Below, in pieces: positions 5,943 to 29,981 of a DNA stretch of 64,000 nucleotides; the first letter of the stretch is position 1; each line of letters begins with the position of its first letter. The notes beneath the pieces were generated by a model. It was given only the letters and a program-made list of their open reading frames with translations, searched no databases and was not told where the DNA came from. Made by a program: the position numbers and the translations under genes. The DNA lies in the NCBI GenBank assembly GCA_041615815.1, contig JBFJCP010000002.1:64001-128000 (forward strand), read 5' to 3'. Source of the DNA: Gemmatimonadales bacterium. GTDB taxonomy: Bacteria; Gemmatimonadota; Gemmatimonadetes; Gemmatimonadales; GWC2-71-9.

Positions 5943-6238
5943 ATCCCCCGGGGCACCCGTTCCATTTCGATCCACGCCACGGGGCGGAACGGGTCCTCTC
6001 GAGCGTCTGTCGGCAGATCGGCATCCACGAACTGCCACAGGGGGCAGTCCTTGGGCCGGACCCCGAGCGGACAGGAGCCATCCTGGTTGCGGCACTCGTC
6101 GAGGCAGAAGGCCTGCGCGGCGCCTTTGACCCTGCTGGTACTCTTGGGAGCGAAGAGTGCCAGGCCTTCCGCTCGCATCACGATGAGGGCCATCACGGTG
6201 GCGAGAAGTACGATGGCAATGACCATGAGGGGTGGCAT
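5939..6238 (-). CDS. Small membrane-anchored protein with four Cys
   Basis: AAGGAGG RBS; N-terminal TM; CLDEC-x6-C-x8-C. Confidence 0.7.
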   Translation of the reverse strand: MPPLMVIAIVLLATVMALIVMRAEGLALFAPKSTSRVKGAAQAFCLDECRNQDGSCPLGVRPKDCPLWQFVDADLPTDAREDPFRPVAWIEMERVPRGM

Positions 6239-6325
6239 GGTCGCCTCCTTGAGCCGGTTTTCCTTTATAGAGTCGTGAATCGCGGGTGAAGGGCCGGTGA
6301 AGGAACCCTGAAGTCCCGCTCGCCG

Positions 6326-6730
6326 TCAGCGCGCGCTCTTCCGGCTCGCCCGCCAAGCGTCGATGCTGAAGCCCCCCGCCCCGACGGTGGACAGGTAGAG
6401 GAACACGAAGCAGTACACGGCCACGAGCTCGCCCCGATTGGCCCACCACCACAGGCCGCCCCTGGGCACGTGCATCCAGAAGTAGGCCACCGCCATCTCA
6501 CCGGACACCAGAAACGCGACCGGCTGGGTGAACACCCCGAAGACGATCAGCAGGCCACCAAAGAATTCGATGATCCCCGCAGCACCAAAACGGCTCATCA
6601 GCTCCACCGGCTCATCCCGACCGAACCAGGCAAACAGTTTCTGCGCGCCGTGGGACCAGTACATGAGACCGACCATGATGCGCATGGCAGGGTGGGCGAT
6701 GGGTCGAAGCTGCGACAAGAGCTGATTCAT
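6326..6730 (-). CDS. DoxX family membrane protein
   Basis: RIMVGLMYWSHGAQKLF, EFFGGLL, GAGGFSID motifs. Confidence 0.9.
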   Translation of the reverse strand: MNQLLSQLRPIAHPAMRIMVGLMYWSHGAQKLFAWFGRDEPVELMSRFGAAGIIEFFGGLLIVFGVFTQPVAFLVSGEMAVAYFWMHVPRGGLWWWANRGELVAVYCFVFLYLSTVGAGGFSIDAWRASRKSAR

Positions 6731-6764
6731 TCGCGGTATTCTCGGTCAGAGGGAAGTAGAGCGG

Positions 6765-7469
6765 TCACGGTCTGCGACTGATCACCCAAATATAGGCGGC
6801 GACCGCTTGCACGTCCGCGTCGCTGATGGCCGAACCTCCGCGTGGCGGCATGGCGATGCCGCCGCGCGACCGCTCCGCTGGCACCCCCGTCAAGATCTGC
6901 TGCACAATGGCCAGGTAGCTGCCTTTGGCATGGAGCCATACTTCGTCAGTCAGGTTGGGTCCGACGCGTCCCCGGGCGTCTCCGGCGTGGCAATTGTCGC
7001 ACCCGCCCTTGCCGTGGAAGATCTCTCCGCCCCACTCCACCATGGCCGGCGTGACACCGGGCGGAAAGGAGTCACCGGATTCCGGGTGACTGAGCTTCCA
7101 GACGAACGCCGCCACGGACTGGACTTCATGGTCCGTGAGATTCGCTCCACCTTTGGGCGCCATCGCCACGCCGCTCACTGATTTATTCGAGGGCACCCCC
7201 ACCAAGATCTGGCTCACCACCTCCAGGTAGTTCCCTTTGGCATGCCACCAATTGTCATCCGTGAGGTCGGGACCGAGCGAACCGTGGGCGTCCTCACCGT
7301 GACAGTTGGCACACCCTCCCGCGCCTTCGAAGATCTGTCTTCCATGACGGACCATGTGGGGGGTCACCCCCGGCGGGAGGGAGTCCGGGATGGCGATGTC
7401 CGCTTGTGCAGCCAACGGTGCGGCACTCACCAGCGAGCCGATGACGAGGAGAGTCGAAGTAAGCCTCAT
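6765..7469 (-). CDS. Periplasmic diheme cytochrome c (tandem-duplicated class I domain)
   Basis: Signal peptide; CANCH and CDNCH, each followed by GP(D/N)LTD..W and a distal Met (MAP/MPP). Confidence 0.9.
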   Translation of the reverse strand: MRLTSTLLVIGSLVSAAPLAAQADIAIPDSLPPGVTPHMVRHGRQIFEGAGGCANCHGEDAHGSLGPDLTDDNWWHAKGNYLEVVSQILVGVPSNKSVSGVAMAPKGGANLTDHEVQSVAAFVWKLSHPESGDSFPPGVTPAMVEWGGEIFHGKGGCDNCHAGDARGRVGPNLTDEVWLHAKGSYLAIVQQILTGVPAERSRGGIAMPPRGGSAISDADVQAVAAYIWVISRRP

Positions 7470-7564
7470 CGCAAGCACACCTCAGAGGAAAGAACACCGT
7501 GGTCGCTTCGTTGCCGGCCACAGGGGACGAGTCCGGAAGCACTCATCGGGGCGGGCGTCACGCC

Positions 7565-9517
7565 TCAGAATCGCCGCACCGCCCGAAAGGAAAACCGACT
7601 GACCGCGCCGGCTGTCCCGACGTTTCGACGCTGATGTTCGAACCGAATGATGGTTTCGACCTGCGCAAAGCGCCAGTTGGCCTCGATCAGCCCGCCGAGG
7701 AACCGCTCAAAACCAGCATCCGCGCGCTCGGTGCGCAGACCATCGAGACGCCCATACATCCGCACACCCAGGGGCGTCATCCAGACCACGGACGCGTTGC
7801 CGAACAGCATGGTGACCCGCTGGTCCTCGGACATGGACCGATTCCATCCTCCACCGAGCGACAGCCGCAGCCGCCGAACACTTGGGAGCGTGAGGGTACC
7901 CCGCGCCTCCCACACGGTGTTTCTGAATCGATCGGTGGTGCGCCGACGCCGCTCAGCCGAGATCCTGAGCAACCCCACGGGTGTGGGCTGTGTGCCGTCC
8001 AATTGTGTCACCATCTCGTTGAAATCGGGTATGGTCAGTGCACCGGCCTGGACGTCCGAATCCGTCCCCCGCAGGGACTGGCGGTGACGCAGCGTGAACC
8101 GCGATACGCCCAACGAGACGCTGTAGTTCCCCGTCACCGTGCGATCACGTCGTCGGGTGGCGGCGCGGAAGCGGTAGGTCACGAGCAGGACTTCGCCCAC
8201 CTGGATCCGACTCGTGATGGGCACGATGATGCGGAGGAACCCACCAACCTCCTGTACCTCGTAATCGAGATCCCGTAGGTACACGAGCGTCCCGTCCGCA
8301 CTGCGCACCATCAGGCTCGCTAAATCCACCTCCGGGTTGTCCAATTCGAACAGACGGGTGTCGTCGACGCGATGACGCTCATTCAAGACCGGGATGAAGC
8401 CATCGCCGGTGCCGTCTTCCCGCCGGCGCTCGTATCCCACCGCGACACCCCCACGCAGGCGGACAATTCGCGGCGTGGGGACCGTGAACTGAAGGCTCGG
8501 AATGATGGATCGCACCGATGTGGTGCGATTGATCAGCTCTGACGAGCGTGCGGAGCCTCGCACCGAACCGGACACCCACCGACTGATGCGGTATTCGATC
8601 CCAGCGCCGTAGCTCCTCGTGCTTGCGCGCGTTCCGTTGATTCGAGACGAAAGCACGCGGTACTGATAGTTCGTACCGAGCCAATGAGTGTGCTGCAAAC
8701 GTAAGCGTTCCGACCACGAGACCTGGCGATAGGGCGAAACCCGGCTGTCCCGATCGGTGAATCCGATACTCGACTGGAGAGTGCTTCCTTTGCCCCACCG
8801 AAAGCGATGATCGAACTGACCGTTCCAAGCCACGAAATCGTCGCCGCCCACGATGCCGTCGTAATTCGTTCGTTCGAGTCTCGCCGAGGCCTTGCTACTG
8901 TTGCCTGCGAATCGGAGAGTCCGCACCCGGTACGATCGTTCCACGGGATCCACCAGAGGCGTCGGATTCCACGTTTGGCTCACGGCCCGCCGGGAATACG
9001 AGAGGCGTACGGGAAACGGCCGCCAGCGAATTGACATGTTGGCATCCGTCGTCGTGTTGGTGTAATCCGTGAGGGTGAGCGCCCCGAGCGTCGAGGATCC
9101 GCCGGATCGGGTGGTCGCGAACGATAGCGAGATTGGGCGGCTCGAGAGGAGCCGCGCCGAGAAGTCGAGGTCGAGCGATCGGGAGACGACGGTATTGTCG
9201 AGCTGATTGGAAAGACCCTGGGTCAGGACCGGTCGCAGCGTCAGGCTCCAGGAGAAGGCACGGGTATCGATCAGCGAGCCCGAGAACGGGAGCGTGACCC
9301 ACTCGCGATATCGCTGATCGCTGAGGCCTGCGCGATCGCCGAAGGCCGTTGCCAGGGCACGGACCTCGATCCCCAGTTGGCCGCGACCACCCCCTACCCT
9401 GAGGAGACCTTGCGCCCCTCCTTCCTGCACGGCTCCGGCGATGCCGACTGCAACGCATGCCGCCATCGCCCCTACACGCCGACGGCGGTCACCGCGACGC
9501 GAGCGTATTCGAGACAT
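7565..9517 (-). CDS. Large outer-membrane beta-barrel protein (porin-like); start uncertain
   Basis: Signal-like N-terminus, many amphipathic beta strands, terminal Phe; adjacent to multiheme cytochromes. Confidence 0.75.
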   Translation of the reverse strand: MSRIRSRRGDRRRRVGAMAACVAVGIAGAVQEGGAQGLLRVGGGRGQLGIEVRALATAFGDRAGLSDQRYREWVTLPFSGSLIDTRAFSWSLTLRPVLTQGLSNQLDNTVVSRSLDLDFSARLLSSRPISLSFATTRSGGSSTLGALTLTDYTNTTTDANMSIRWRPFPVRLSYSRRAVSQTWNPTPLVDPVERSYRVRTLRFAGNSSKASARLERTNYDGIVGGDDFVAWNGQFDHRFRWGKGSTLQSSIGFTDRDSRVSPYRQVSWSERLRLQHTHWLGTNYQYRVLSSRINGTRASTRSYGAGIEYRISRWVSGSVRGSARSSELINRTTSVRSIIPSLQFTVPTPRIVRLRGGVAVGYERRREDGTGDGFIPVLNERHRVDDTRLFELDNPEVDLASLMVRSADGTLVYLRDLDYEVQEVGGFLRIIVPITSRIQVGEVLLVTYRFRAATRRRDRTVTGNYSVSLGVSRFTLRHRQSLRGTDSDVQAGALTIPDFNEMVTQLDGTQPTPVGLLRISAERRRRTTDRFRNTVWEARGTLTLPSVRRLRLSLGGGWNRSMSEDQRVTMLFGNASVVWMTPLGVRMYGRLDGLRTERADAGFERFLGGLIEANWRFAQVETIIRFEHQRRNVGTAGAVSRFSFRAVRRF

Positions 9518-10406
9518 GGCATCGCTGGCAATTGCCGAATCCGGCGCGGAAGGCGACGGCCCCATTGTGGCATGCGCCGCACGCCTCTCCAGCGTTGATG
9601 TCCTTCATCAGAATCGCGGTGGCTCCGGCCCGGGGCTCGAAGAGATCCACGTGACATGCTTTGCAGCGAAACCGGACTCGATGCAGCCAGTGTGGGAAGA
9701 TGGCGGGAGGCAGTTCGTCCGTGCGCACTCCGGCGGAGTTGCCGATGGAATCGGAGATCAGGGCAGCCGAGTCGAGGCTCACTCGCCGCATGGTGACGGT
9801 ACCGAGGAGTTCGGGCTGGGCGCGATCCGGAGGCATGGGGAGCGACTGGTGGCAGCGTTCGCAGCCGGAGTTCACCGGATAGGCCACCTTGCCATGGCAC
9901 TCTCCGCAGTACCGTCCCTGGAAGATGTCCGCCATGGATATGTTCGTTCCCCGGTAACGAAAAATGGGCCCGTGACACTGCCGGCAGTCCACCCACTCCG
10001 TGTGTGAGGAGTGCGGGAAGTAGGCATCGAACGTGGAGTCGGGACCTTGCAGGTAGAAGTCGAAGGCGAAGCGGAAGTCGGGCTCCCCCAAATGCCGAGC
10101 CCGGCCCGCAATCGCGGACCGAGGCTTGATTACGCCGTCGCGCAACGCAGCCATCCAATCGATATTGCCGGCGTGGTCGCGAGGCAACATCGCCGTCGCG
10201 CTGTCCGCGTTCAGCGTCCCTTCAATTGGAGGACGAACCGTATCCTCCGACACTACCAGCGGCGAGGCAGCTGGAACTCGAGCGACCGTGGCCGGCCGCT
10301 CCTCTCCCGACTTCGGAGGGATATCGAACACTGTGCCGGCCACCTGCCTGCATCCGATTACGAGCAGACAGACCGCTGCCAAGCGCCATCCCGACCCGCC
10401 CGTCAC
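9489..10406 (-). CDS. Hexaheme c-type cytochrome lipoprotein, two c7-like triheme domains
   Basis: Lipobox LVIGC; CRQCH, CGECH, CERCH, CKACH, CGACH, CQRCH; FPHxxH before each triplet. Confidence 0.9.
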   Translation of the reverse strand: MTGGSGWRLAAVCLLVIGCRQVAGTVFDIPPKSGEERPATVARVPAASPLVVSEDTVRPPIEGTLNADSATAMLPRDHAGNIDWMAALRDGVIKPRSAIAGRARHLGEPDFRFAFDFYLQGPDSTFDAYFPHSSHTEWVDCRQCHGPIFRYRGTNISMADIFQGRYCGECHGKVAYPVNSGCERCHQSLPMPPDRAQPELLGTVTMRRVSLDSAALISDSIGNSAGVRTDELPPAIFPHWLHRVRFRCKACHVDLFEPRAGATAILMKDINAGEACGACHNGAVAFRAGFGNCQRCHVSNTLASR

Positions 10407-11098
10407 TTCTGGTGACAGGTCAAGCAGAGCGCGCTACCCGCATTGGACAGACGCAGGAACGGGCGGTTGGCGGCCGTGTGCGGATTATGGCACGTACCGC
10501 ATTGCACCTTGCCGTCCACGTCGAGCACGAGACCCGCCGAGGAGATCGACCCCGCGGAGTTGAACGCTGGGTCCTGCCCCGGGTCATAGAGCACCGAGAC
10601 GGGGTGATCGTCCCGCAAATCCGTACCGAGATTCGTCAACCGGCCGGCTGGCAACGTTGTGCCGACAGCCGCACCGCCGGTATAGGAGTTCGGCGTATTG
10701 GTGATGACATCGAGCCCCACCGTCCCATCATGACAGCTCAGGCAGGCCAGCGAGATCCCGGTGGGCTGTCCATCGACCGTCATGTCGATCGTCGAGCTGT
10801 GGGTCGCGTCGTACATCTGGTACGTGGCAGTCGAAAAACCCCGGTTCCATAGGGGAGCGCTCACATCCCCACCGTGCGGCGTGTGACAGTACACACATAC
10901 CTCGCCATAGTCTTGCAGGGCCCCCGCACCAAACGAGTCTGCCTGGGCCGCGAACGACAGGTTGTGCAGCGTCTCCACCACGGTCGTCCCGTTGGGATAC
11001 GCGCCGGGCGGCGTGACCTGAGCCAGCACGCTCGCGGGAAGTGCGAGCAGCGCCGCGACGGCCAGGCCCACATAGCTTCTCTTCACCCTCATGGTCAT
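10403..11098 (-). CDS. omcE: Tetraheme cytochrome c, OmcE-like
   Basis: Signal peptide; CVYCHTPH..PLWNR, SLACLSCHDG, LGTDLRDDHPVS, CGTCHNPH..PFLR, LCLTCHQK; motif order and length match Geobacter OmcE as recalled. Confidence 0.8.
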   Translation of the reverse strand: MTMRVKRSYVGLAVAALLALPASVLAQVTPPGAYPNGTTVVETLHNLSFAAQADSFGAGALQDYGEVCVYCHTPHGGDVSAPLWNRGFSTATYQMYDATHSSTIDMTVDGQPTGISLACLSCHDGTVGLDVITNTPNSYTGGAAVGTTLPAGRLTNLGTDLRDDHPVSVLYDPGQDPAFNSAGSISSAGLVLDVDGKVQCGTCHNPHTAANRPFLRLSNAGSALCLTCHQK

Positions 11099-11170
11099 GC
11101 TCCTTTCAGCGATGGCGCTGATCGCCTCGCATCATCGACGCCGCAAAGCGCCGCATTGCCTTGTTGTCGT

Positions 11171-12403
11171 TCATGGCATGGTTGAACCGACCGGTGGCAA
11201 CAATACCGGCTCGGTAGCGGCGCTCTCCTCGGGCGCCTCCAAATACTCGAAGATCTGTACACGGGCGTTATAGCGGTCTGCGACGTAGATCCGGTCGCTC
11301 GCGTCGATGGCGATACCCATTGGGAGCCAGAATTCCCCCGGTCCGCTCCCAAAGCCGGCAAACCCGATGAGGAGACGCCCCTCCGAATCGAACACCTGCA
11401 CATTGTTGAACGCTGCATCCACCACGTAGACGTGCCCGTTGGAGTCTACGGACAGCCCTTTGGGTCGTGCGAATGCCCCGGGCGTGTCGCCCAGTCTGCC
11501 AAACTGCCGTTGAAACTCGCCCTGCGCATCGAACACCTGAACGCGGAAATTCATCGCGTCACAGACGTACATTGTCCCGTCCGGCGCCACCGCAACCGAT
11601 ACGGGGAAGAGAAACTCGCCCACACCATGGCCTCGGTTCTCCAGCATGTCGCGAGGTCCCGTCCGGAGCCGATGGGACGTGGGCTGCGCGGTCGCCCGAG
11701 CCGCAGCTTGCTGGTCTCTGGCCACGATATCACCCCGATCCCGGCCTACGCGTCGGACCAGGTTTCCATCCTGATCGAAGACCACAATCTGATGGAGGTA
11801 GCTATCGGCCACGTAGATGTGACCCGCGACGGGATCAACCGCCACGTCCACCGGATTCAGCAGAAGGGTCGGCCCGCCGAACGCGCGTACGAATTCCCCC
11901 GTCGGTCCGAACACCACCACGCGGCGACTCGTTGCGTCGGTGACATACACGTGGCCACGGCGATCGCCGCCCAGACCCATCGGTTTGATGAGTCGTCCTT
12001 GACCGGACCCGCCGAACACCTCGGCCTGCTTGGTTGTGTGGTCGAACACGAGAAGTTGACGTGACGTTGCGTCGGTAACGTAGACGCGGGTGCTGTCCTC
12101 AGCGTAGACGTCGGACGGCCGAAGGATGGAGATGTAGGGATCATCCTGAGCTCCCGCCAATGCGCGAGAGACACGGCCAAAGAACGAGGGGCGCTTGCCA
12201 AGGTCTGCTTCGCTGTGCAAGAGACCGAGGTAACGGATTCGTGCCGCTTCCGGCGGCGCCGGCCACACGAGGTCCTCGAGGGGCGCAATGCCGGTCTGGA
12301 CGCCCGCTCCACCACAAGCAGCCACGCCGAGCACCACGAAACCGATGAGACCCGCCAACGCCGCTACGCGCCGCGACATTCGTGTTGCATCGGGGTGGGC
12401 CAT
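11171..12403 (-). CDS. NHL-repeat beta-propeller lipoprotein
   Basis: GGAGGT RBS; lipobox VAAC; WPAPPE motif; repeated P.GxxxD..G.xYV.D..N.RVQVFD units. Confidence 0.9.
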   Translation of the reverse strand: MAHPDATRMSRRVAALAGLIGFVVLGVAACGGAGVQTGIAPLEDLVWPAPPEAARIRYLGLLHSEADLGKRPSFFGRVSRALAGAQDDPYISILRPSDVYAEDSTRVYVTDATSRQLLVFDHTTKQAEVFGGSGQGRLIKPMGLGGDRRGHVYVTDATSRRVVVFGPTGEFVRAFGGPTLLLNPVDVAVDPVAGHIYVADSYLHQIVVFDQDGNLVRRVGRDRGDIVARDQQAAARATAQPTSHRLRTGPRDMLENRGHGVGEFLFPVSVAVAPDGTMYVCDAMNFRVQVFDAQGEFQRQFGRLGDTPGAFARPKGLSVDSNGHVYVVDAAFNNVQVFDSEGRLLIGFAGFGSGPGEFWLPMGIAIDASDRIYVADRYNARVQIFEYLEAPEESAATEPVLLPPVGSTMP

Positions 12404-12411
12404 GTTACCTC

Positions 12412-13167
12412 CTACCAAAAGTGAGCGGTCGTCTCGCCCGGGTCAGCGAGATGACAAGTCGAGCACAGGGCCTGCCCCCCGTTGCTCATTCGCAGGAACG
12501 GTGCAAACTGCTGCGTGTGCGGATCGTGACACGTCCCGCACTGCACCTTGCCGCCGTACAGTCGAAGACCCGCCGCCTCGACCGCGGCCACGGAATTGAA
12601 GTCCGGATCCAATGAGGGGTCGTACAGAATCGAAATGGGATGCTGTGTGCGGAGATCGTCGTCAAACCACACGTTTTCCCAATTGATCCCTCCGTCTGGG
12701 TTACCGCCGGTGTGACAGTCTGTGGCGCAGCGTTCGATCACTTCGCCCAACGGAGTCGTCGCCGTGAACAGGGGCGGCGGGTTCGCGATTTCGTCGAGGC
12801 CGATCGTGCCATCGTGGCACGAGAGACACAGGAGAGACACCTCCGTCGGCTGCGGATCGGCAATCATATCGATCGTATTGCTCTCGTACATTCGATATGG
12901 CGTGGCCGGCAACTGCCGGTTCCACAGGGGGCGATCGGGTCCCCCACCGTGCGGCGTATGGCAGTACACGCACGCACTCCCGTAGTCCAGAAACATCGTG
13001 GACATCGGCGGGACTTGCGCCGTCCGCGCGAGGTTGTGGACCGTCTCCACCACCGTGGTTCCGTTAGGCCATTGCGCTCGGCATGGCCGGACCGCCATCG
13101 ACGCCATGACGACGATCACGGCCGCACCGCCGAGCGTCTTGGCCCACCACGTGCGCGCATACCACAC
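12412..13167 (-). CDS. Second OmcE-like multiheme cytochrome (4 CxxCH plus one CxxxCH)
   Basis: CVYCH, CLSCH, CGTCH, CSTCH plus CATDCH; clear paralog of 10403-11098. Confidence 0.85.
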   Translation of the reverse strand: MWYARTWWAKTLGGAAVIVVMASMAVRPCRAQWPNGTTVVETVHNLARTAQVPPMSTMFLDYGSACVYCHTPHGGGPDRPLWNRQLPATPYRMYESNTIDMIADPQPTEVSLLCLSCHDGTIGLDEIANPPPLFTATTPLGEVIERCATDCHTGGNPDGGINWENVWFDDDLRTQHPISILYDPSLDPDFNSVAAVEAAGLRLYGGKVQCGTCHDPHTQQFAPFLRMSNGGQALCSTCHLADPGETTAHFW

Positions 13168-13173
13168 CTCCTA

Positions 13174-13620
13174 TCACGAACCTCCACCAACGGTGATCGT
13201 ACCCTTCATTCCCAACGTCTCGTGGGGCGTGCACACGTACTTGTGCACCCCATCCGTGAAGCGTGCGTCGATGACCACGTCATAGGTTTCGCCGGGTGCC
13301 GTGAGGTACGGTCCCATCTGCCGGTCGCCTAGCTGCGACTCCGCAGGAACCTCGCGGAACTCGACGTTGTGCGGCATGCTTCCCGTCTGTTCGAACCGCA
13401 CGGTATCGCCCGGGTGCACAGTGACGTCGGCAGGCTCGAACCGGTATTCGGTCGTCGAGACATCCACCATCTTCACGACGACGACTTGACCGCGCGAGGT
13501 CGCTGGCTCGCTGACCGACCAACCGGCCAGCAACATGCTCAGAATGCCCGCCGCCGCTGCGCCGGCGAGCACCCGTGATAGGCTTGGCGTTCTGGCAATG
13601 CTCATGAAGCGTCCAGACAT
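13174..13620 (-). CDS. Plastocyanin/azurin-family cupredoxin
   Basis: Signal/TM segment; PHNVEF...YVCTPHETLGMKG type-1 Cu ligands; purine-rich RBS before ATG 13620. Confidence 0.9.
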   Translation of the reverse strand: MSGRFMSIARTPSLSRVLAGAAAAGILSMLLAGWSVSEPATSRGQVVVVKMVDVSTTEYRFEPADVTVHPGDTVRFEQTGSMPHNVEFREVPAESQLGDRQMGPYLTAPGETYDVVIDARFTDGVHKYVCTPHETLGMKGTITVGGGS

Positions 13621-13876
13621 TGTTGGCTTCCCTCCCCTTCCGTCCGTGTAATGGTCGATGCCAGTCAAGGACGCACAGGTGCAGCAGTCTCCCAGAGACT
13701 CGCCGCTCCAGCATCCACTTGGGTCCACTGCTACCCCACGACGATCGGCATTCGTGACCGCCGCACGTGGGTTTTCAGGCAGGAAGTGGACCGCACTCGG
13801 GCTTGGGAAAAGGTTGAGCTAATCCTCTATGGGACAAAGGCCTACGAAGGGAGGCAGGGCGAAGGTATTCGTGAGT

Positions 13877-13916
13877 GTGTGACACTCGGGGTCACACTGT
13901 GCCCCAACGTGACGCA
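13877..13916. promoter_or_regulatory. Tandem inverted repeats, candidate enhancer (UAS) for the sigma54 activator
   Basis: GTGTGAC-N7-GTCACAC followed 20 bp later by TGTGCC-N7-GACGCA. Confidence 0.5.
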
Positions 13917-13938
13917 CGTTGGTGCTTCCGAAGCAGCG

Positions 13939-15372
13939 TCAGAACGCCATATCGAGGCGAAGCCAAACAGCGCGGGGTCGGCGACCGCCGAGAGTGGCGC
14001 TGTGTTGATCCTCAGTAAACAGTTCTGCTTCCAGGACACCCCGTACGTTTTGGCGAATGAGGAAAATCGCGCCCGGCATGATGCGCGTCTGGTCGAATCC
14101 CCCGACCGTGAAACCGTCGGCCCGTATGGACGCAGGAATCTCAGCGGAGAAAGTGTCCACCTTGAAGGAGCCCAACAGCCAGGGAAAGAACAGGTACTCC
14201 CCCTTCACGAAAAAGCTGGAGCTGCCAAGGTCACCATCGGCGTCGGCGCCCCACGGACGGTCGTGCTGTCCCCAGACATGTCCGAAACCGAGATCCACCG
14301 GTCCCCATAGCGCTCGAGCGGCGACGCCGAACGCGCGGTGATCGTCCTGACGATCTCCCGCCGCGGGCTGCGCGCCCAAATACCCGAAGTGTTCGAGCGT
14401 GAGCGATCGGTCCAGGAGTTGGCCACCGCCTCCCAGTAGCGGCCCCGTGTCGCCACGGTACCGACCATCGAGCCCGAGCCCGCCCAGCTTGTAGCGAACC
14501 TTGTAGTAGAAATCTTTCCGTCGATTATTGTCGGCTGTCGTTGCATTCGTGCCTTGGGCGACGCCAACAGCGTACGCCAAACGGCCACTCACCATTCCAT
14601 TCAGCTCGATAGACGGCTGTGACTGCCGCAGCTGGAATTCGTTGATTGATTGCAGGGTCGCGCCGCTGATCGGATCCTCGAGCTCGAGATCGGAGACGCG
14701 GTAGTCCTGCCAACGAAAGTTCTGTCGCGCCGCACGATCGATTTGTCGATCGGCGAACGTGAACAGGTACAAGTTTTGGACACCCACCCAGAGGTTGAGG
14801 GTTCGAGCCGGAAGCCACGGCAAGACATCCTGCACTTCCACCTTGGCCTGGAGAAGCTCGACCCCACCTTCTCGCGACCATTCCGATTCCAAGAACACAC
14901 TGATCTGCTCACCGAGTGTCGTTCCGGCGAGGAGATAGACTTCGTGAGGGAGGCGAAAGTCGAGCCGGGCATCGTCGGTAGCGTCACGAGTGAGCCCTAC
15001 GTCATTCTGGATACGCAAGGCTATCGGTGGCGTACCAGGCAACTCACCCGGCCAAATACCGCGGGGCCAGATGTCTTTCCATTCGTCCGATCCCAACGGC
15101 ACCGGTCGGTCACGGCGAAGCAGCGCGTCGTTGTCGGGAAACCGGTAGCCATTGAGGCGGAACGCTTCACCGAGCACGTTCAGTTTGGGCGCCGCCGTAT
15201 GGCACGTGGTGCAGCTCGTGCGATATTTACGTGCGAACGCGGGGATGCGGTCGCTCGGCTGGCTCACTCGTGGATTCGCCGCGCTCAACGTCACGACTAG
15301 CAGGCCGGCAGTCATGCCCCAAACCGGTACGGACGTGTAACGGGCCGCGCGGTGTGATCGTGATCGATCCAT
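13939..15372 (-). CDS. cyc2: Cyc2-like monoheme cytochrome-porin fusion
   Basis: IPAFARKY-x3-CTTCH-x3-PKLN..GEAFRLNGY N-terminus, then beta-strand-rich body ending in Phe. Confidence 0.7.
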   Translation of the reverse strand: MDRSRSHRAARYTSVPVWGMTAGLLVVTLSAANPRVSQPSDRIPAFARKYRTSCTTCHTAAPKLNVLGEAFRLNGYRFPDNDALLRRDRPVPLGSDEWKDIWPRGIWPGELPGTPPIALRIQNDVGLTRDATDDARLDFRLPHEVYLLAGTTLGEQISVFLESEWSREGGVELLQAKVEVQDVLPWLPARTLNLWVGVQNLYLFTFADRQIDRAARQNFRWQDYRVSDLELEDPISGATLQSINEFQLRQSQPSIELNGMVSGRLAYAVGVAQGTNATTADNNRRKDFYYKVRYKLGGLGLDGRYRGDTGPLLGGGGQLLDRSLTLEHFGYLGAQPAAGDRQDDHRAFGVAARALWGPVDLGFGHVWGQHDRPWGADADGDLGSSSFFVKGEYLFFPWLLGSFKVDTFSAEIPASIRADGFTVGGFDQTRIMPGAIFLIRQNVRGVLEAELFTEDQHSATLGGRRPRAVWLRLDMAF

Positions 15373-15408
15373 CGACGGTTCTCTCCCAGCCAGCAGTTGG
15401 CCGCCGGC

Positions 15409-16005
15409 CTACTTGGGTCTCAAGTCCAGCTGCAAGATCAGGTTACCGTCTCGCGGAACGGAGATCGGCTGTTCGAATGATCGCAGCCGCCGGTGCCACA
15501 CCCGCAGCGTGTAGGCCCCTGGCGGCACACTGTCGATGCGGAACGACCCGTCCGGGGACACGACGGCATGGTGCGGCGTCGGGACCACCAGGACGTGGGC
15601 AACCATCTCGGGGTGGACGTGACAGAGAATCACGTGCGGCCCAATACCCATAAAGCGGTGTGTTCGGGATTGGCTGCGGGGGTACGTGCCGAGATTGAAA
15701 GGGCTAGGAAGGCGGGTCGGGCTGAACACATTGTGCAGCACGGGATCGGAATTCCGAAACTCGACCACGGTTCCCGGGACCACAACCTGGACGGTGGGCC
15801 GGAACCGCAGGCCTCTTTGGTCGATCAAGAGCGGAGTGTCCGGCACCGCATATGTCGTGTCGCGCGCAGCTTCCAAATACACGACAGCATCCGTTACCGG
15901 GACACTCGGCGCCTGCACGATTCCCTCGACCGATCCGAGTCCGCCATCGTTCGGACCCACGGAGACGCACAGGAGCGCTCCGACCGCGACCGCGCGCCTA
16001 CGCAT
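15409..16005 (-). CDS. Exported cupredoxin / carboxypeptidase-regulatory-like domain protein
   Basis: NSDPVLHNVFS...CHVHPEM Cu-type ligands; GSFRIDSVPPGAYTLRVWH. Confidence 0.8.
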   Translation of the reverse strand: MRRRAVAVGALLCVSVGPNDGGLGSVEGIVQAPSVPVTDAVVYLEAARDTTYAVPDTPLLIDQRGLRFRPTVQVVVPGTVVEFRNSDPVLHNVFSPTRLPSPFNLGTYPRSQSRTHRFMGIGPHVILCHVHPEMVAHVLVVPTPHHAVVSPDGSFRIDSVPPGAYTLRVWHRRLRSFEQPISVPRDGNLILQLDLRPK

Positions 16006-17395
16006 CGTCGGTTCCTCCACCCTTTCCGTCATCCCCTTCAAGCCAGCGATGGACTGTTCTTCGGCTCACCCCAGCGACTCGCGCGGCCTGCGAGACGTTC
16101 CCACCCGTATGCTCCAGAAGGTGTCGCACGTACCGACCTTGAAAAATCCTCACCGCCTGCGCACGCGCCTCGTCATAGGGACGCGGTGGTGCATCGAGGG
16201 TGTCGGCAAGCATCCGGCTTCCCGGACGAAGGGCTTCCGGGAGATCGGCCAGCGTGATGCGACCGTCACTGTCGAGCACGATGAGCCGCTCAGCGAGATT
16301 GCGAAGCTCACGGACGTTCCCCGGCCAGCGGTGAGCTTCGAGTGCATCCCACACTTCGGGTGATACCAGCGGTGGTTCCTTCCCAAGTTCCGCGGCGGAT
16401 TGGACGAGGAACTTCTGAGCCAACATGACTATATCCCCACCGCGCTCCCTGAGTGGCGGTAGCCGAAGCGGAACGACGTTCAGCCGGTAATAAAGGTCCT
16501 CCCGGAATCGTCCCGCCGCTACCGCTGCCTCAAGGTCGGTGCTGGTGGCGGCGACCAATCGAATATCGATGTCGATCAGAGCCGAACTCCCCAAACGGCG
16601 GATCTCCCGTTCTTCGAGCGCTCGCAGCAGTTTGGATTGGAGACCGAGCGTGAGCTCGGCGAATTCGTCGAGGAAAACGGTTCCACCATTACCCTCTTCC
16701 AACAGACCGGTCTTGCGGCCAACGGCCCCCGTGAACGCTCCACGTTCATACCCGAACAGTTCGCTCTCCATCAGGCCCTCGGGCAAGGCTGCACAATCCA
16801 CCGGGACGAACGGCGATTCCCGCCGGGTACCGTGTGTGTGGAGATAGCGTGCAATCAGTTCCTTCCCCGTGCCACTCTCACCGGATAGCAAGACATTGGC
16901 ATCGGTCGGAGCAACTTTGCGGACCTGATCCATGAGGGTCTGAAATGCTGCGCTCGATCCCACGATCTCATCCACGCGACTGCCCCGTGCTATCTGTTCC
17001 CGCAGAGCGAGGTTTTCGATGGCGAGCCCGCGATGCCGAATGGCCCGCTGGACGGCCACCTCCAACTGATCTCCGGAAAACGGTTTAGTGATGTAGTCGA
17101 AGGCACCCTCGCGTATGGCGGAGACGGCGGATGCCACGGACCCAAACGCCGTCATGATGATGACCGCAACCGTCGGATCGTCCGCCAGGGCAGCGGTCAG
17201 CACCGTCATCCCGTCCACATCGGGCATCCGGAGATCGAGTAGCAGAACATCGGGCTGATAGTCTCGCAACACCTCCCGTACCCGGGCCGCGTCCGAAAGA
17301 GTTCGACACCGGTGCCCGTGACGGGCCAGCAGACGCTCGCAGTTCTCGAGCATCGCGGGCTCATCATCCACGATCAGGACTCGCGCTCGGTCCAT
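15998..17395 (-). CDS. Sigma54-dependent response regulator (NtrC/AtoC family)
   Basis: REC domain (VLIVDDE, DLRMP), GESGTGKE, GAFTGA, C-terminal Fis-type HTH. Confidence 0.95.
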   Translation of the reverse strand: MDRARVLIVDDEPAMLENCERLLARHGHRCRTLSDAARVREVLRDYQPDVLLLDLRMPDVDGMTVLTAALADDPTVAVIIMTAFGSVASAVSAIREGAFDYITKPFSGDQLEVAVQRAIRHRGLAIENLALREQIARGSRVDEIVGSSAAFQTLMDQVRKVAPTDANVLLSGESGTGKELIARYLHTHGTRRESPFVPVDCAALPEGLMESELFGYERGAFTGAVGRKTGLLEEGNGGTVFLDEFAELTLGLQSKLLRALEEREIRRLGSSALIDIDIRLVAATSTDLEAAVAAGRFREDLYYRLNVVPLRLPPLRERGGDIVMLAQKFLVQSAAELGKEPPLVSPEVWDALEAHRWPGNVRELRNLAERLIVLDSDGRITLADLPEALRPGSRMLADTLDAPPRPYDEARAQAVRIFQGRYVRHLLEHTGGNVSQAARVAGVSRRTVHRWLEGDDGKGGGTDDA

Positions 17396-19689
17396 GCAGT
17401 CTCCTGGAGCGGCAGGGGCAAAGACACCACGAAGCGGGTCCCGCCATGCGCTCGGTCTTCCACCCAAATCTCACCATCATGTCGGTCAATGATGCTCCGA
17501 CAGACGGCGAGCCCCAACCCGGTGCCGCGACCCGAGGTCTTCGTTGTGAAGAATGGCTCAAAAATCCGGTGACGCAGTTCCTCCGGCACGCCGGAACCTG
17601 TGTCATCCACGATGATCTCCACCGCGCTGCGATCGGCTGATCGTCGAATGGTGAGCGTCACCTTGCCGCCCGACGGTGTGGCGTCCGCCGCGTTCAAGAG
17701 CAGGTTGAGGCATACGGTCTCGATCGCGGGCTCACTTCCCGAGACTTGCGGCAGCCCCTCAGCGATCTCGGCATCCAGACCGATGTTTCGAGAGGAAAAC
17801 GTTCGTTCGAGGACACGCGCGAGTCGGGCGGCAACATTATCGAGCGCCACAAGTCCCCATTCGTTGGATTCCTGATTGCGAGCGAGACTCAAGAGATCGC
17901 GCGTGACCTCACCAAGTCTTCCCACATGTTCTCGCAACACCGAAAGATCACGAACCAGGAAATCCCCATCCTCATCCGAGCACCGCTGACGGATCTCATC
18001 TTCCATGCACTCGAGACGGTTTCCGATGACTGCAATCGGGTTGTTGAGCTCGTGCGCAATCCCGGCCGCCATGACACTCACAGCGGCGATCCGCTCCGAA
18101 CGCCGCAAGTGCTCTTCCAGACGCTTCTGATCCCGGGTATCGCGAAGAATAAGAGAGTAACCAAAAGGTTCTCCATCCTGATCGCGAATCAGCGTTTGGG
18201 TCAAGCTCAGTGCGATGCGTTCTCCGTCCTTCGATTTTCTCTCCGTGTTGAGGTTGACCACCGCACCGCGTCGTTCGACCTCACGCGCGATGTACCGTTG
18301 CTCGGCCGACGGACCGCTCGAGAGCAGATCAGCGACGTTTCGGTTCAGCGCTTCGGCGGCCTTGTACCCGAAGAGCTCTTCGGCACCCCGGTTCCACACC
18401 CGAACACGTTGGTCCAAGTCCAGGCCGATGATGGCGTCTGCCGAGCGTTCGAGGATGTGTGACAGTTCCGCGTGCGTTTGGCGAAGCGCCTGCGTGCGCT
18501 CTTCGACCAAGCCCTCCAGGTTCTGCCGATGTGCCGTGAGCTGATCCGCCATGGCAGTGAATTCCGCAGCGAGATCCTCCAGCTCATCGTTGGTCTCGAC
18601 GCGCACCGGGATGGTCAACTGGCCCCGAGCGAGACGTTCGGCGCTGCGGCGCAGCCGATAGATCGGCTCCGTGAATTGGCGCGCACCCACCGTCGCGAGC
18701 CCGATGACCGCCCCTAGCATGATCAGCGCGCCCAGTGATACCCATCGGCGAAAGTCCACCACGGAAGCCTCAAGCTGCGAGAGCGGGACGATCCGATAGA
18801 GCACGGGCGCGGGTGCGCCGGTCGCCGTTGTCCACAGTGGGAGAAACCGAACGATGGCACTGTCAGCAGCTTCGAACGTTCCGCTCGCCCCGGCCCGCAG
18901 TGCACGCGCGATGTCTTCCGAAAGCTCGTCTGCGAGGTCTACCTCGTCTCTTGATGCTAACAGGCTGCCCCAGTCGCGCTTGCGGGACGAGTGATAGAGA
19001 TACAAACCATCTGAGCCGATGAGCCCTGTCGTACCCTGAAGGCTGGGGGAACCGTCTTCGATGCCGTCGAACAGCACTGTCGCATACGCTTCACCCACGA
19101 CCGCGCCGGCCAGTACGCTATCGGGTTCATGAACTGGAACGACCACGGCGATCGCCGGAATCGTAGCCAACGTCGAGTCCGCCTCCACATCGGCGCGCAA
19201 TTCGATGGGCAGAACCAGAGTGCTGCCCGGCCCCAACGCAGCAGCCTGAGCGGCGTAGTAGAATCCGCTCCCATCCCCCTCCGATCCGCCAACACGGCCG
19301 TGGTCTGCGCTTCGCACGAAGCGTAAAACGCCATTTTCGTCGACGACTTTGATCTGGAAGAGCGACGGATGTCCGCCGAGAAACACCTGTAACCAAGCTT
19401 CCGCCATCGCCCACTCCCTCGTCGTGGCACCCATCAGGAGCGGGCGGAACAGGACCGCAGCGAGAAACTCCACATCCCGCTCGACTTGTTGAAGACGCCC
19501 GGCGGTCTGCTGCTGCGCCAATTCGAGATCATGTTCTAGCGTCGTCGTTGCCGTGACGCGTAACTGCCGTGAAAACATCTGGGTGGCGAACAACGCTGCA
19601 CCTGCCAGCGGCACAATCGCCAGGAGCGCGAACGCGATCGCCAGCTTGAGACGGATCGAGAGACGGGGAAAGAGTTTGTTAATATTCAT
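17374..19689 (-). CDS. Sensor histidine kinase (periplasmic sensor, HAMP, PAS, HisKA, HATPase)
   Basis: Two TMs; AHELNNP H-box; NAADA, DTGSG, FFTTK, GTGLGL boxes. Confidence 0.95.
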   Translation of the reverse strand: MNINKLFPRLSIRLKLAIAFALLAIVPLAGAALFATQMFSRQLRVTATTTLEHDLELAQQQTAGRLQQVERDVEFLAAVLFRPLLMGATTREWAMAEAWLQVFLGGHPSLFQIKVVDENGVLRFVRSADHGRVGGSEGDGSGFYYAAQAAALGPGSTLVLPIELRADVEADSTLATIPAIAVVVPVHEPDSVLAGAVVGEAYATVLFDGIEDGSPSLQGTTGLIGSDGLYLYHSSRKRDWGSLLASRDEVDLADELSEDIARALRAGASGTFEAADSAIVRFLPLWTTATGAPAPVLYRIVPLSQLEASVVDFRRWVSLGALIMLGAVIGLATVGARQFTEPIYRLRRSAERLARGQLTIPVRVETNDELEDLAAEFTAMADQLTAHRQNLEGLVEERTQALRQTHAELSHILERSADAIIGLDLDQRVRVWNRGAEELFGYKAAEALNRNVADLLSSGPSAEQRYIAREVERRGAVVNLNTERKSKDGERIALSLTQTLIRDQDGEPFGYSLILRDTRDQKRLEEHLRRSERIAAVSVMAAGIAHELNNPIAVIGNRLECMEDEIRQRCSDEDGDFLVRDLSVLREHVGRLGEVTRDLLSLARNQESNEWGLVALDNVAARLARVLERTFSSRNIGLDAEIAEGLPQVSGSEPAIETVCLNLLLNAADATPSGGKVTLTIRRSADRSAVEIIVDDTGSGVPEELRHRIFEPFFTTKTSGRGTGLGLAVCRSIIDRHDGEIWVEDRAHGGTRFVVSLPLPLQETAWTERES

Positions 19690-19772
19690 ACGGACCAGTT
19701 ACCAACGAGCATGGGCGGCGTCCAGCGAGTGACAGGGTCTCCTCGAACAAGGCAAAAAGCGTCGTTGTCATC

Positions 19773-19799
19773 GTGAAGCTTTTATGAAGTTGACGTGAG
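19773..19799. promoter_or_regulatory. Three direct repeats at 11-bp spacing
   Basis: GTGAA 19773, ATGAA 19784, GTGAG 19795 in a divergent intergenic region. Confidence 0.4.
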
Positions 19800-19879
19800 C
19801 AACGGCTCTTGCGAGTTGATCGCCTTCACTACCCGAGACACATTGGTGCACGCTCCAATTCATCGATCGGCCGAGATCC

Positions 19880-20611
19880 ATGACGACGTGTCCGCAGTGT
19901 CATCAGCAAACTCGAGACGGGGTCTGCCCGCGTTGCAACCGGCGCACGACGCGCTCGTGTGCGACCTGCGGCTCCCCACTGGATGCCCGGTACTCGTTTT
20001 GTCCAGCATGCGGAGCGCCGCTCGGTCGGAACCCGGGACTGCTGATACGCCGCCTCGCATGGCTCTTTGGGATCGGCGCGTTGGTGGTCGTGGTCCTCGT
20101 AGCGGCCCGCCTCTCGCGCACCCCACGGCCCACTGCGCCCGCCGCCGTGACCCGCGGCATCCCCGCACCTGACATCAGCGCCATGACCCCCCGTGAACAA
20201 GCCGATGCGCTGTTCACGCGCATCATGAATGCCAGCCGCATCCACGACACGGCGCAGATTCGTTTCTTCCGTCCCATGGCCATCGGTGCGTTTGCCTTGC
20301 TCGACTCCCTCGACCTCGACGCACGTTACCATTTGGGCCTGATCCACGTCATGACCGACGACCTGCCAGCCGCCCGGGCACAACGGGACACGCTGCTGCA
20401 AGAAGCTCCGCGTCACCTCTTGGGATTACAGCTCAGTTACGCGATCGCGCAGCGAGCCGCCGATACCACGCAGATGCGGACCGTCCTCCGAGACTTCCTC
20501 GATGCCTACGGACCCGAGTCGGCGAGCGGCCGACCGGAGTATGCAGATCACGCGGCCACTTTGCAGAACCTCCGACAGGGCGCGCTCGCGGTTCTCGACC
20601 CAACACAATAG
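19880..20611 (+). CDS. Double zinc-ribbon membrane protein with TPR-like helical C-terminus
   Basis: Four CxxC pairs, one TM, helical domain (DLDARYHLGLI). Confidence 0.75.
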   Translation: MTTCPQCHQQTRDGVCPRCNRRTTRSCATCGSPLDARYSFCPACGAPLGRNPGLLIRRLAWLFGIGALVVVVLVAARLSRTPRPTAPAAVTRGIPAPDISAMTPREQADALFTRIMNASRIHDTAQIRFFRPMAIGAFALLDSLDLDARYHLGLIHVMTDDLPAARAQRDTLLQEAPRHLLGLQLSYAIAQRAADTTQMRTVLRDFLDAYGPESASGRPEYADHAATLQNLRQGALAVLDPTQ

Positions 20612-20822
20612 CCAGTCCCTGTCGACCGACCAACTGTACCAAACCAACACAGGCCTGCCCCGGATCATGGCACTACGCCGCTGCGTGATCTACCTCACGT
20701 CTGCATAACTGACCATCACCGCGGCAGTTGCCGTCCTCACGTTTCAGTGCATTTCGGGCATCGTCGTTGCTTCTCCTCCCCATCGGTTGACATCTCGATA
20801 ACACAGAACATGGGAGAGAACG

Positions 20823-28627: not shown

Positions 28628-28666
28628 GAACGCAGGAGAGGCGGGGATGACCAGAGGAGACAGAAC

Positions 28667-29977: not shown

Positions 29978-29981
29978 GGTA

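Follow-up and report, generated by a model that had tools for sequence, protein, structure and literature searches.

The window analyzed here is a stretch of 64,000 nucleotides (nt) from contig JBFJCP010000002.1 of a Gemmatimonadales bacterium (positions 64,001 to 128,000 of the contig), and its interval 6765–19689 carries 11 co-oriented genes, all on the minus strand, with 17 CxxCH haem-binding motifs in the open reading frames. In their order of transcription, these genes encode a sensor histidine kinase, a sigma54-dependent response regulator, a cupredoxin extended by a CarboxypepD_reg domain (hereafter CupCPD), a Cyc2-like cytochrome-porin fusion, a plastocyanin-type cupredoxin, a five-haem OmcE-like protein, an NHL-repeat protein, a four-haem OmcE homologue, a hexahaem protein, a very large outer-membrane beta-barrel, and a dihaem cytochrome. 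A sequence-only reading had previously proposed this block as a single locus for cytochrome nanowires and extracellular electron transfer; every gene that it named was found on the minus strand at the position it gave, and its total of 17 CxxCH motifs was exact on recount (1 + 4 + 4 + 6 + 2 for the Cyc2-like, the two OmcE-like, the hexahaem and the dihaem proteins). A further motif of the CX3CH type (CATDCH, at residue 147 of the 251-amino-acid (aa) five-haem protein) comes in addition to these 17; all 8 aligned relatives have a haem motif there, which makes a total of 18 haem sites likely. According to the list of open reading frames and their translations, every credible gene of the slightly larger interval 6326–19689 lies on the minus strand, and the flanks are unrelated, with RND efflux genes downstream and hypothetical proteins and a radical SAM gene upstream. 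Both halves of the block are conserved syntenic units elsewhere, and the arrangement is thus not due to chance. We somewhat favor the view that the locus is a composite, regulated system for electron exchange across the outer membrane, built from two separately conserved modules, A and B.

Module A (13939–19689) is a conserved unit of four genes. The first one (17374..19689, minus strand, as for all genes below) encodes a sensor histidine kinase with HATPase_c (3.5e-29), PAS (5.9e-15), HAMP (1.7e-10) and HisKA (5e-9) Pfam domains, and with a periplasmic Cache-like region between two transmembrane segments (dCache_1, 5.9e-4, under the cut-off). The second gene (15998..17467) encodes a sigma54-dependent response regulator of the NtrC/AtoC type containing Sigma54_activat (E 1.3e-66), Response_reg (5e-27) and HTH_8 domains; its best NCBIfam matches were AtoC and NtrC, both below their cut-offs, and its true start is likely M25, at position 17395. 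The third gene (15409..16041, with a likely start at M13, position 16005) encodes the 210-aa CupCPD protein, in which a periplasmic cupredoxin domain is followed by a CarboxypepD_reg beta-sandwich (Pfam, 7.3e-8). A profile built from 11 CupCPD orthologues matched the blue-copper (type-1) protein 5fc9 (E 1.2e-7) and amicyanin (2.2e-6) in the PDB, and the ligand set H91, C128, H131 and M134 was invariant in these orthologues. A paralogue of CupCPD lies directly upstream of COX2-COX1-COX3 in the same genome (positions 5802–9718 of locus L107, contig C10), which points to a role of the protein as an electron carrier towards an oxidase. In the block around this paralogue, several class-I cytochromes c and a subunit I of the bd-like type are encoded as well.

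The last gene of module A (13939..15372) encodes a 477-aa protein in which a monohaem cytochrome domain is fused to a 16-strand outer-membrane porin. Cyc2 proteins have been described by a single CXXCH motif, an upstream PXFAR[Q/K][T/Y] motif called unique to Cyc2, a downstream PXL motif, a length of at least 365 aa, and a 16-strand porin resembling OprO/OprP, and the functionally validated members have the fused cytochrome-porin architecture (Keffer et al. 2021, PMC8406198). All these features of motif, length and fold were found in the 477-aa protein, so that the cytochrome-porin fusion of the sequence-only reading has the published sequence and fold characters of Cyc2. Its motifs read P44-A-F-A-R-K-Y50, C54-T-T-C-H58 and P62-K-L64, with P44, F46, R48, Y50, C54, C57, H58, P62, K63 and L64 invariant in 37 Cyc2-like relatives. 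The AlphaFold2 (AF2) model showed 16 long strands (residues 117–476, with a predicted local confidence, pLDDT, mostly >85), and the best-superposing structure found by Foldseek was OprP (2o4v, TMq 0.53, root-mean-square deviation (rmsd) 4.6), OprO (4rjw, 0.50) being also among the matches. No sequence match was obtained in Pfam, NCBIfam or the PDB, and in a protein atlas the matches were to unnamed clusters of the "cytochrome c family", with Porin_O_P as a minority label, a result that we treated as a lead only. On the basis of its motifs and predicted fold, the 477-aa protein in all likelihood belongs to the Cyc2 family; that it oxidizes Fe(II), as suggested by analogy, is a tentative proposal that we place somewhat below an even chance. 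A Cyc2-like match of any kind was found in 41 of 401 Gemmatimonadota genomes (including the unpublished genome G083, on which the counts of close orthologues given below do not depend). The same genome also contains a second, distant Cyc2-like N-terminal match (contig C36, around positions 4324–4854, locus L108), with 30% identity over 216 residues.

The order of the four genes of module A was remarkably stable. A close orthologue of the Cyc2-like gene was found in nine other Gemmatimonadota genomes; in all nine, the CupCPD and regulator genes lie directly upstream of it, and the kinase gene precedes them in all seven genomes whose contig extends far enough. The same arrangement was observed on metagenome contigs wherever the sequence was available, with CupCPD (40/40), the regulator (25/25) and the kinase (19/19) upstream of the Cyc2-like gene; this tally covers 49 contigs carrying Cyc2-like orthologues of at least 46% identity. 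In a more distant Cyc2-like subfamily (30–41% identity; L158–L188), the trio is reordered as sigma54 regulator, Cyc2-like protein and CupCPD, the regulator being upstream on 9 of 12 metagenome contigs and the CupCPD homologue downstream on 16 of 17. In some members of this subfamily, near-consensus sigma54 promoters were also seen about 90–110 nt 5' of the Cyc2-like gene, such as TGGCAAAGGAATTGC (L158) and CGGCACAAAGGTTGC (L165, L167). Near module A in L087, an unrelated DoxX-like open reading frame was read by eye.

Module B spans positions 7565–13728, perhaps extending to 6765, and is very probably an OmcE-family cluster. Its candidate major filament subunit is a 231-aa four-haem protein (10403..11098) that matched, over query residues 19–231 and chain residues 10–232, the Geobacter sulfurreducens OmcE filament (PDB 7tfs_A, E 6.7e-30), and also the OmcE of D. 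soudanensis (9yuq_N, E 1.1e-26). Alignment with 19 relatives showed eight invariant histidines (H45, H72, H75, H123, H165, H204, H207 and H229), four of them within the CxxCH motifs and four others (H45, H75, H165 and H207), each aligned with a histidine of OmcE. This is the haem-ligand pattern of four CxxCH motifs plus four other histidines reported for OmcE homologues (PMC13712944, section 7). In OmcE wires, an interfacial haem is completed by a histidine of the next subunit (PMC13712944; 2026 review PMC12954529). A complex prediction with two mature copies of the 231-aa protein and four haems scored 0.08 against a mark of 0.42, and is evidence neither way.

The second OmcE-like protein (12412..13167; 251 aa) is 50–55% identical to the first one and also matched the filament subunits (9yuq 4.3e-19, 7tfs 3.5e-18), and the two tetrahaem paralogues noted previously are thus true OmcE homologues; they are the only OmcE-like copies in the host genome. 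This paralogue contains four CxxCH motifs, the additional CATDCH motif and a 12-residue C-terminal tail. In the eight aligned members of its subfamily, ten histidines were invariant, including His249; the fifth haem motif sits in an insert and is CxxCH in five members and CX3CH in three, the protein of the window among the latter. All eight have a C-terminal tail of 11–12 residues with an invariant histidine, whereas the four-haem type ends two residues past the last haem motif, like OmcE. All 15 loci with a tail-bearing five-haem gene had a four-haem gene without the tail next to it. Five-haem OmcE-like proteins have been reported in uncultured phyla, with an extra haem predicted to be solvent-exposed (PMC13712944, section 9); the same study names no in-cluster candidate for an anchor or tip subunit yet, and the words "paralog" and "cupredoxin" are absent from its main text.

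OmcE-like genes are patchily distributed in the phylum, being present in 22 of 400 other Gemmatimonadota genomes and in neither of the two genomes of the same genus. The OmcE-like genes of the window resemble those of two loci labelled Eisenbacteria (L008 and L010) more than those of most Gemmatimonadota loci, with the same order of five-haem, NHL and four-haem genes, a TAHFW tail and top identities of 77% and 70%; one protein labelled Gemmatimonadales was likewise 70% identical. From sequence comparison, lateral transfer of these genes is possible. Outside this lineage, L013, L016, L017, L020, L096, L097 and about 43 further loci encode OmcE-like fusions of about 570–1,030 aa, in which an N-terminal tetrahaem domain is followed by an extension with seven CxxCH motifs and one CX3CH motif, giving 12 motifs; these fusions usually adjoin an NHL gene and often a plain four-haem gene.

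The two OmcE-like genes are accompanied by a set of recurrent partners. Between them lies the gene for a six-bladed NHL-repeat beta-propeller (11171..12418; PF01436 6.9e-33, DUF5128 2.7e-23), a probable lipoprotein with a lipobox-like VAAC sequence read by eye and a likely start at M14, position 12379. The four-haem gene is followed by a gene whose start overlaps its stop by 4 nt (9489..10406) and which encodes a hexahaem protein made of two c7-type triheme domains, also a probable lipoprotein (lipobox-like VIGC, read by eye). Its two domains were recognized above the cut-off, in two stretches, by TIGR04257 (nanowire_3heme, 2.1e-36), and it matched PDB 3ov0 (3.2e-42), a chain labelled as a cytochrome c family protein that we take to be the dodecahaem GSU1996 of G. 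sulfurreducens. The next gene (7565..9565) encodes a 666-aa protein modelled by AF2 as a very large outer-membrane beta-barrel of about 29–30 strands (mean pLDDT 83.9), with a small beta domain inserted around residues 385–455. No Pfam or NCBIfam family was assigned to this barrel beyond a chance-level match. With VIA-align, the barrel aligned best with TonB-dependent receptors such as Cir (Z 15.6), tied with MtrB (6r2q_B, Z 15.5, 421 residues aligned), LptD being close behind, and the Foldseek matches were generic (TM score about 0.3 to 0.33, rmsd >7 Å). An usher is not favored (Z 11–12), and no specific family can be named for this protein, the structure matches being those of generic large barrels.

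At the 5' end of module B, a gene at 13174..13728 encodes a plastocyanin-type cupredoxin with a signal peptide (PF00127 4e-19; PDB plastocyanins 1e-18). Its start is likely the ATG at 13620, and it heads a tightly packed downstream operon, the genes from the cupredoxin to the DoxX gene described below being separated by −7 to 86 nt. Both of the cupredoxin-type proteins noted by the sequence-only reading are therefore real, one by PF00127 and the other by the CupCPD orthologue profile.

The composition of module B was conserved well beyond the window. Among 79 loci from species-representative genomes, an NHL gene was found within 1 kb of the OmcE-like gene in 71 loci belonging to many phyla, a gene of the barrel family (hidden Markov model (HMM) E<1e-5) within 8 kb in 46, and a c7-type hexahaem gene within 5 kb in 19; several of the eight loci that lack the NHL gene are short or end near the OmcE-like gene. 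In the Gemmatimonadota loci that were fetched, the NHL gene adjoined the OmcE-like gene in 14 of 14 cases, and the hexahaem and barrel genes were found in 13 of 14, the contig of L095 ending before them. Likely wire-formers have been selected by the presence nearby of a large outer-membrane barrel and a beta-propeller lipoprotein (PMC13712944), and both of these markers are present in the window.

Two genes at the end of the block are less firmly attached to it. A gene located 86 nt past the barrel gene (6765..7478) encodes a soluble dihaem c-type cytochrome of the CcoP/c4-like type, with two class-I domains (Cytochrome_CBB3 9.9e-21 in two stretches; PDB CcoP 1.7e-9). An orthologue was found after the barrel gene in L132 and directly after the cupredoxin gene in L120, but not in the other related loci examined. 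A further 34 nt downstream, a gene at 6326..6730 encodes a DoxX-family membrane protein (DoxX 9.2e-14), for which no homologue was detected by tblastn in the related loci.

The junction between the two modules was then considered on metagenome contigs. Twenty-one contigs, some of them near-duplicates from related samples, were informative, i.e., contained at least 1.4 kb of sequence downstream of the Cyc2-like gene; 9 of them carry module B, recognized by its NHL or OmcE-like genes, in the 5 kb that follow this gene, and 11 carry the plastocyanin-type cupredoxin in the 4 kb that follow it. The combination recurs in the genome locus L091 and in L118, L119, L128, L129, L132, L137, L144, L147 and L151, and all 11 genes of the window are repeated in L132, including the dihaem gene after the barrel. 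The single combined locus proposed by the sequence-only reading is therefore real as a recurrent combination, but it is made of two separately conserved modules and is not one indivisible system. Similarly, the locus does have its own regulator in that the kinase and sigma54 pair accompanies the Cyc2-like gene, but this pair is missing from the flanks of the Gemmatimonadota loci containing only the OmcE module. In L120, the Cyc2, cupredoxin and dihaem genes are present while module B is not, and the arrangements of L120 and L132 together make module B look inserted in a Cyc2-cupredoxin-dihaem operon. Cupredoxins of one family open module B in loci with the OmcE module only (L006, L007, L093, L094 and L095) and come after the Cyc2-like gene in Cyc2-only loci (L088 and L092). 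The cupredoxin gene was found upstream of module B in all seven two-paralogue Gemmatimonadota loci with upstream sequence (the window, L006, L007, L091, L093, L094 and L095). We lean towards the view that the modules have been joined more than once.

The intergenic region ahead of the cupredoxin gene was also inspected for regulatory elements. A degenerate sigma54-type −24/−12 element, CGGTCCACTTCCTGC, is located at 13779..13793 on the minus strand, about 155 nt 5' of the cupredoxin start, and better sigma54-like elements occur at the same place in relatives, such as CGGCACGCTTCCTGC in L088. An element of the GGCAC-N5/6-CTGC type with at least 8 of 10 core positions, for which the background is 0.06 per 300 nt, was found within 300 nt upstream of the cupredoxin gene in 7 of 17 Cyc2-linked loci and in 0 of 5 OmcE-only loci. 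No such element was found upstream of CupCPD in 48 control regions, and between the regulator and the Cyc2-like gene none was found in the window or in 8 of 9 genome loci, L086 having one with 8 of 10. As regards a sigma54 regulon, the AAA+ domain of the regulator is clear and the promoter is good in relatives and weak in the window. An inverted repeat, GTGTGAC...GTCACAC, was read from the sequence just past the stop of the Cyc2-like gene (13877..13897, minus strand) and may be a transcript end or a processing site between the modules. A simple promoter and terminator scan of positions 5300–20800 gave nothing above the shuffled expectation, the terminator scan having skipped the inverted repeat because no T-run follows it, and no Rfam match was obtained in the window.

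Several of our observations weigh against a composite system. The modules are adjacent in 2 of 401 Gemmatimonadota genomes, those of the window and of G215 (L091); a close Cyc2-like orthologue is present in 10 genomes, counting that of the window, of which these two alone contain an OmcE-like gene, and 21 of the 23 genomes with an OmcE-like gene have no close Cyc2-like orthologue. In the window, a gap of about 320 nt with the hairpin separates the Cyc2-like gene from the cupredoxin gene, so that two transcripts are probable. The sigma54-like element of the window is weak, retaining GG and GC but matching at 6 of 10 core positions, and the consensus TGGCAC-N5-TTGCW, searched over the whole window with at most 2 mismatches, occurred 19 times where 23.7 occurrences were expected, which is not above chance. 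No RNA run was listed among the public runs that contain the locus. The membership of the dihaem and DoxX genes is doubtful, given that the former was found in L120 and L132 alone among related loci and the latter in none. With a single propeller gene in 6326–19689, module B differs from the minimal omcE cluster of Desulfuromonadia, which consists of two multihaem cytochromes, two propeller lipoproteins, OmcE and a barrel (PMC13712944), this minimal composition being a feature of the clusters of one order and not of the OmcE protein family. The 477-aa protein was placed in the Cyc2 family by its motifs and predicted fold, and the iron-oxidase role of cluster-3 Cyc2 homologues has been called uncertain (PMC13264449). 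Finally, the published midpoint potential of the D. soudanensis OmcE wire, −145 mV, fits outward electron flow in Geobacter-type organisms equally well.

Some of these points would be explained if the two modules were independent neighbours, module B being an OmcE wire that works outward under anoxic conditions, as in Geobacter, with partner cells or Fe(III)/Mn(IV) oxides as its electron acceptors, and module A a separate Cyc2-type device, brought together by the clustering of redox genes or by a shared transfer history and not by joint function. In addition to their rare adjacency in genomes, the gap with the hairpin and the low potential of OmcE, the stretches fetched from 8 of the 9 other module A genomes showed no module B gene and module A was found in none of the 14 fetched OmcE-containing Gemmatimonadota loci, while the nearby anaerobic-type genes (HgdAB/BcrAD-like) and the many multihaem cytochromes fit a metal-reducing lifestyle. 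However, the junction recurs in 9 of the 21 informative contigs with varying sequence identity, one cupredoxin family is shared by OmcE-only and Cyc2-only loci, L120 and L132 suggest a module B placed inside a Cyc2-cupredoxin-dihaem operon, and the sigma54-like promoters precede the cupredoxin gene in Cyc2-linked loci only. Moreover, a high-potential cupredoxin in one operon with a low-potential wire is hard to fit in an outward path. We thus consider that independent neighbours are a possible but rather doubtful explanation, and we incline to the view that the two modules are functionally coupled.

It is also conceivable, with a similarly limited probability, that no filament is made, and that the OmcE-like proteins are surface or periplasmic monomers or small oligomers forming, with the hexahaem protein and the barrel, a conduit of the Mtr/Pcc type. 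OmcE-like tetrahaem sequences are indeed very widespread, and not all of them need form wires (PMC13712944); we found more than 7,203 relatives at E<=1e-10, and 49 of 166 complete OmcE-like genes encode the 12-haem fusions and not small subunits. The barrel, for its part, aligned with MtrB as well as with anything else. However, these barrel matches were generic, the published wire markers are present, and the 231-aa protein resembles two solved filament subunits over its full length, with the N-terminal histidine, the C-terminus just after the last haem motif and the eight ligand histidines kept. We consider it somewhat more likely than not that module B makes extracellular filaments.

That the Cyc2-like protein is not an iron oxidase, but handles Mn, Cu(I), humics or sulfur compounds or runs in reverse, with the kinase and regulator sensing that compound, seems unlikely to us, for although its assignment was by motif and fold, cluster-3 homologues are of uncertain role, Cyc2-like genes occur in heterotrophic phyla without known iron oxidation (PMC9769843), and the RuBisCO-like match of the genome is weak (80.8 bits, probably form-IV-like) and does not indicate iron lithoautotrophy through the Calvin–Benson–Bassham cycle, the cytochrome-domain motif called unique to Cyc2 is fully conserved, validated Cyc2 proteins have the same fused architecture (PMC8406198), and a cupredoxin and a dihaem cytochrome lie alongside, as in the Acidithiobacillus rus operon.

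The host genome (4.19 Mb, 95.7% complete) was assigned to Gemmatimonadota, as the sequence-only reading had supposed, and within this phylum to Gemmatimonadales: a protein of a genome of the same GTDB family (G086) was 100% identical to a protein labelled Gemmatimonadales bacterium at NCBI, and the Cyc2-like relatives agreed, since all seven organism-named matches among the 120 listed belonged to Gemmatimonadota. The genome contains four COX1 genes and 18 open frames with at least 3 CxxCH motifs, some of which, with 8 to 18 haems each, are grouped together on contig C20. Elsewhere in the window, a 363-aa frame with 8 CxxCH motifs and no Pfam match at E<=1e-6 (43332–44423, plus strand) adjoins TetR and outer-membrane efflux genes. 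Positions 24950–36012 (plus strand) encode two enoyl-CoA hydratases, two HGD-D proteins (2-hydroxyglutaryl-CoA dehydratase D-component family), two BcrAD/BadFG-type ATPases and a large acyl-CoA dehydrogenase, resembling an anaerobic-type acyl-CoA dehydratase or aryl-CoA reductase-like set. In public runs, one independent contig spans 6857–19700 and a second contig bridges the module junction, although in both cases the run may be the source sample. Two runs of other studies, labelled soil metagenome, contain near-identical contig pieces of both modules, none of the listed pieces bridging the junction at 13.6–13.95 kb. The runs that best cover 6300–19700 are labelled marine metagenome and may be the source.

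If the locus works as a composite system, the kinase would sense a periplasmic cue and the regulator would switch on the cupredoxin operon from its putative sigma54 promoter. If the analogy with Cyc2 holds, the 477-aa protein would oxidize a soluble donor at the cell surface, Fe(II) being the most likely one, and reduce the periplasmic copper proteins. The 231-aa protein would be exported through, or anchored at, the barrel with the help of the NHL lipoprotein and would polymerize in the manner of OmcE, the five-haem paralogue being a putative minor subunit at the base, at the cap or in a leaky branch. The hexahaem lipoprotein with its two c7 domains may connect the periplasmic pool to the filament, and the cupredoxin and the dihaem cytochrome could carry electrons to haem-copper oxidases. 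The plastocyanin-type cupredoxin and the dihaem cytochrome are likely shared periplasmic carriers, since their genes bracket module B and also occur with module A alone.

These parts can be compared with several known systems. With the omcE clusters of G. sulfurreducens and D. soudanensis (7TFS and 9YUQ), which were published in 2026 as a set of subunit, propeller lipoprotein and large barrel (PMC13712944), module B shares full-length homology of the subunit, with four CxxCH motifs and four histidines, and the presence of a beta-propeller lipoprotein, a large barrel and further multihaem cytochromes alongside. It differs from them by a single propeller gene instead of two, by the lack of a glycosylation gene block, by the five-haem paralogue with its C-terminal histidine tail, by the plastocyanin-type cupredoxin in first position and the 2x c7 hexahaem lipoprotein, and by its connection with a Cyc2 module and its sigma54 two-component pair. 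The main text of PMC13712944 names five phyla, and that of the host, Gemmatimonadota, is not one of them. The published five-haem OmcE-like proteins are of similar length, with an OmcE core and one extra haem motif (PMC13712944), whereas the subfamily of the window is paired with a four-haem gene and has the histidine tail, with CX3CH in 3 of 8 members; the passages of PMC13712944 on five-haem proteins mention neither the pairing nor the tail. As for the Cyc2 proteins of Mariprofundus PV-1 and Acidithiobacillus ferrooxidans, the 477-aa protein shares with them the signal peptide, the single CXXCH with its flanking motifs, a length of at least 365 aa and the 16-strand porin. The first position of AXPXFAR is R and not A in the window, and its family differs in always having the CupCPD gene and the sigma54 two-component pair alongside.

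Porin-cytochrome conduits such as MtrCAB (6R2Q) and the Geobacter Pcc complexes also combine a very large barrel with multihaem lipoproteins. MtrB was among the tied best structural matches to the barrel of the window, together with the generic similarity already mentioned, but the latter has about 29–30 predicted strands and an inserted domain instead of 26 strands, and no decahaem partner. The rus operon of A. ferrooxidans contains cyc2, cyc1, cox genes and the rusticyanin gene. It resembles the locus in gathering an outer-membrane Cyc2-type protein, one or more blue-copper proteins and a dihaem class-I cytochrome, but the locus has no oxidase genes, which lie elsewhere in the genome, its cupredoxins are plastocyanin- and amicyanin-like, and an OmcE module stands between the cupredoxin and the dihaem genes.

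The sequence-only reading knew of no description of this combination, and our literature search likewise found none. It yielded no account of an OmcE-type cluster in Gemmatimonadota or Eisenbacteria, although supplementary tables may list one. Nor did it yield an account of the pairing of four-haem and histidine-tailed five-haem proteins, or of an OmcE cluster joined to a Cyc2/cupredoxin/sigma54 module, supplementary tables and subscription journals being mostly outside its scope. Cyc2 homologues have already been published in metagenome-assembled genomes of Gemmatimonadota and Eisenbacteria (PMC9769843, PMC11316326). What is new is thus the joining of the modules and its extra parts, omcE clusters and Gemmatimonadota Cyc2 proteins each being already in print.

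The direction of electron flow may be approached from the redox potentials of these parts. Cupredoxins are high-potential carriers. Given the −145 mV of the one OmcE wire that has been measured, a wire coupled to a cupredoxin would be downhill only inward. The potential reported for the Cyc2 of PV-1 is +208 mV (PMC8406198). Because the pairing of OmcE and Cyc2 recurs in environmental DNA, wires may take electrons in as well as out. A more specific proposal, which we regard as unlikely at present, is that the OmcE-type wire of this lineage is an organ of electron uptake, made as a heteropolymeric filament of four-haem and five-haem subunits. The C-terminal histidine would then let the five-haem paralogue act as a base, a cap or a solvent-exposed contact subunit, and electrons would pass from the wire to the 2x c7 lipoprotein, then to the copper proteins and the c4-like cytochrome, and finally to aa3/cbb3 oxidases. 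The wire would be switched on by the Cyc2-associated sigma54 two-component system, Cyc2 harvesting dissolved Fe(II) while the wire would draw its electrons from partner cells, cathodes or Fe(II) minerals in solid form. If this proposal were true, the locus would encode the first cytochrome nanowire whose dedicated role is extracellular electron transfer in the inward, oxidative direction, and it would offer the first candidate from within a cluster for the subunit at the anchor or tip of a filament.

Work on cytochrome nanowires has been confined almost entirely to metal reducers of the Geobacter type, in which the wires carry electrons out of the cell. Our results indicate that the core machinery of these wires (subunit, propeller lipoprotein and very large barrel) is present in Gemmatimonadota, Eisenbacteria and many other uncultured phyla, a distribution that extends beyond the five phyla listed in the main text of PMC13712944. 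In this lineage, parts that are otherwise tied to electron uptake, namely a Cyc2-type module, blue-copper proteins and the sigma54 switch, are repeatedly joined to this machinery, and the question of inward-working wires thereby becomes directly testable with named genes. The paired four-haem and five-haem subunits, the five-haem one having an extra invariant histidine, offer a concrete in-cluster candidate for the anchor or the tip of the filament, and the iron-cycle surveys that already score Cyc2 in these phyla gain a second set of markers.

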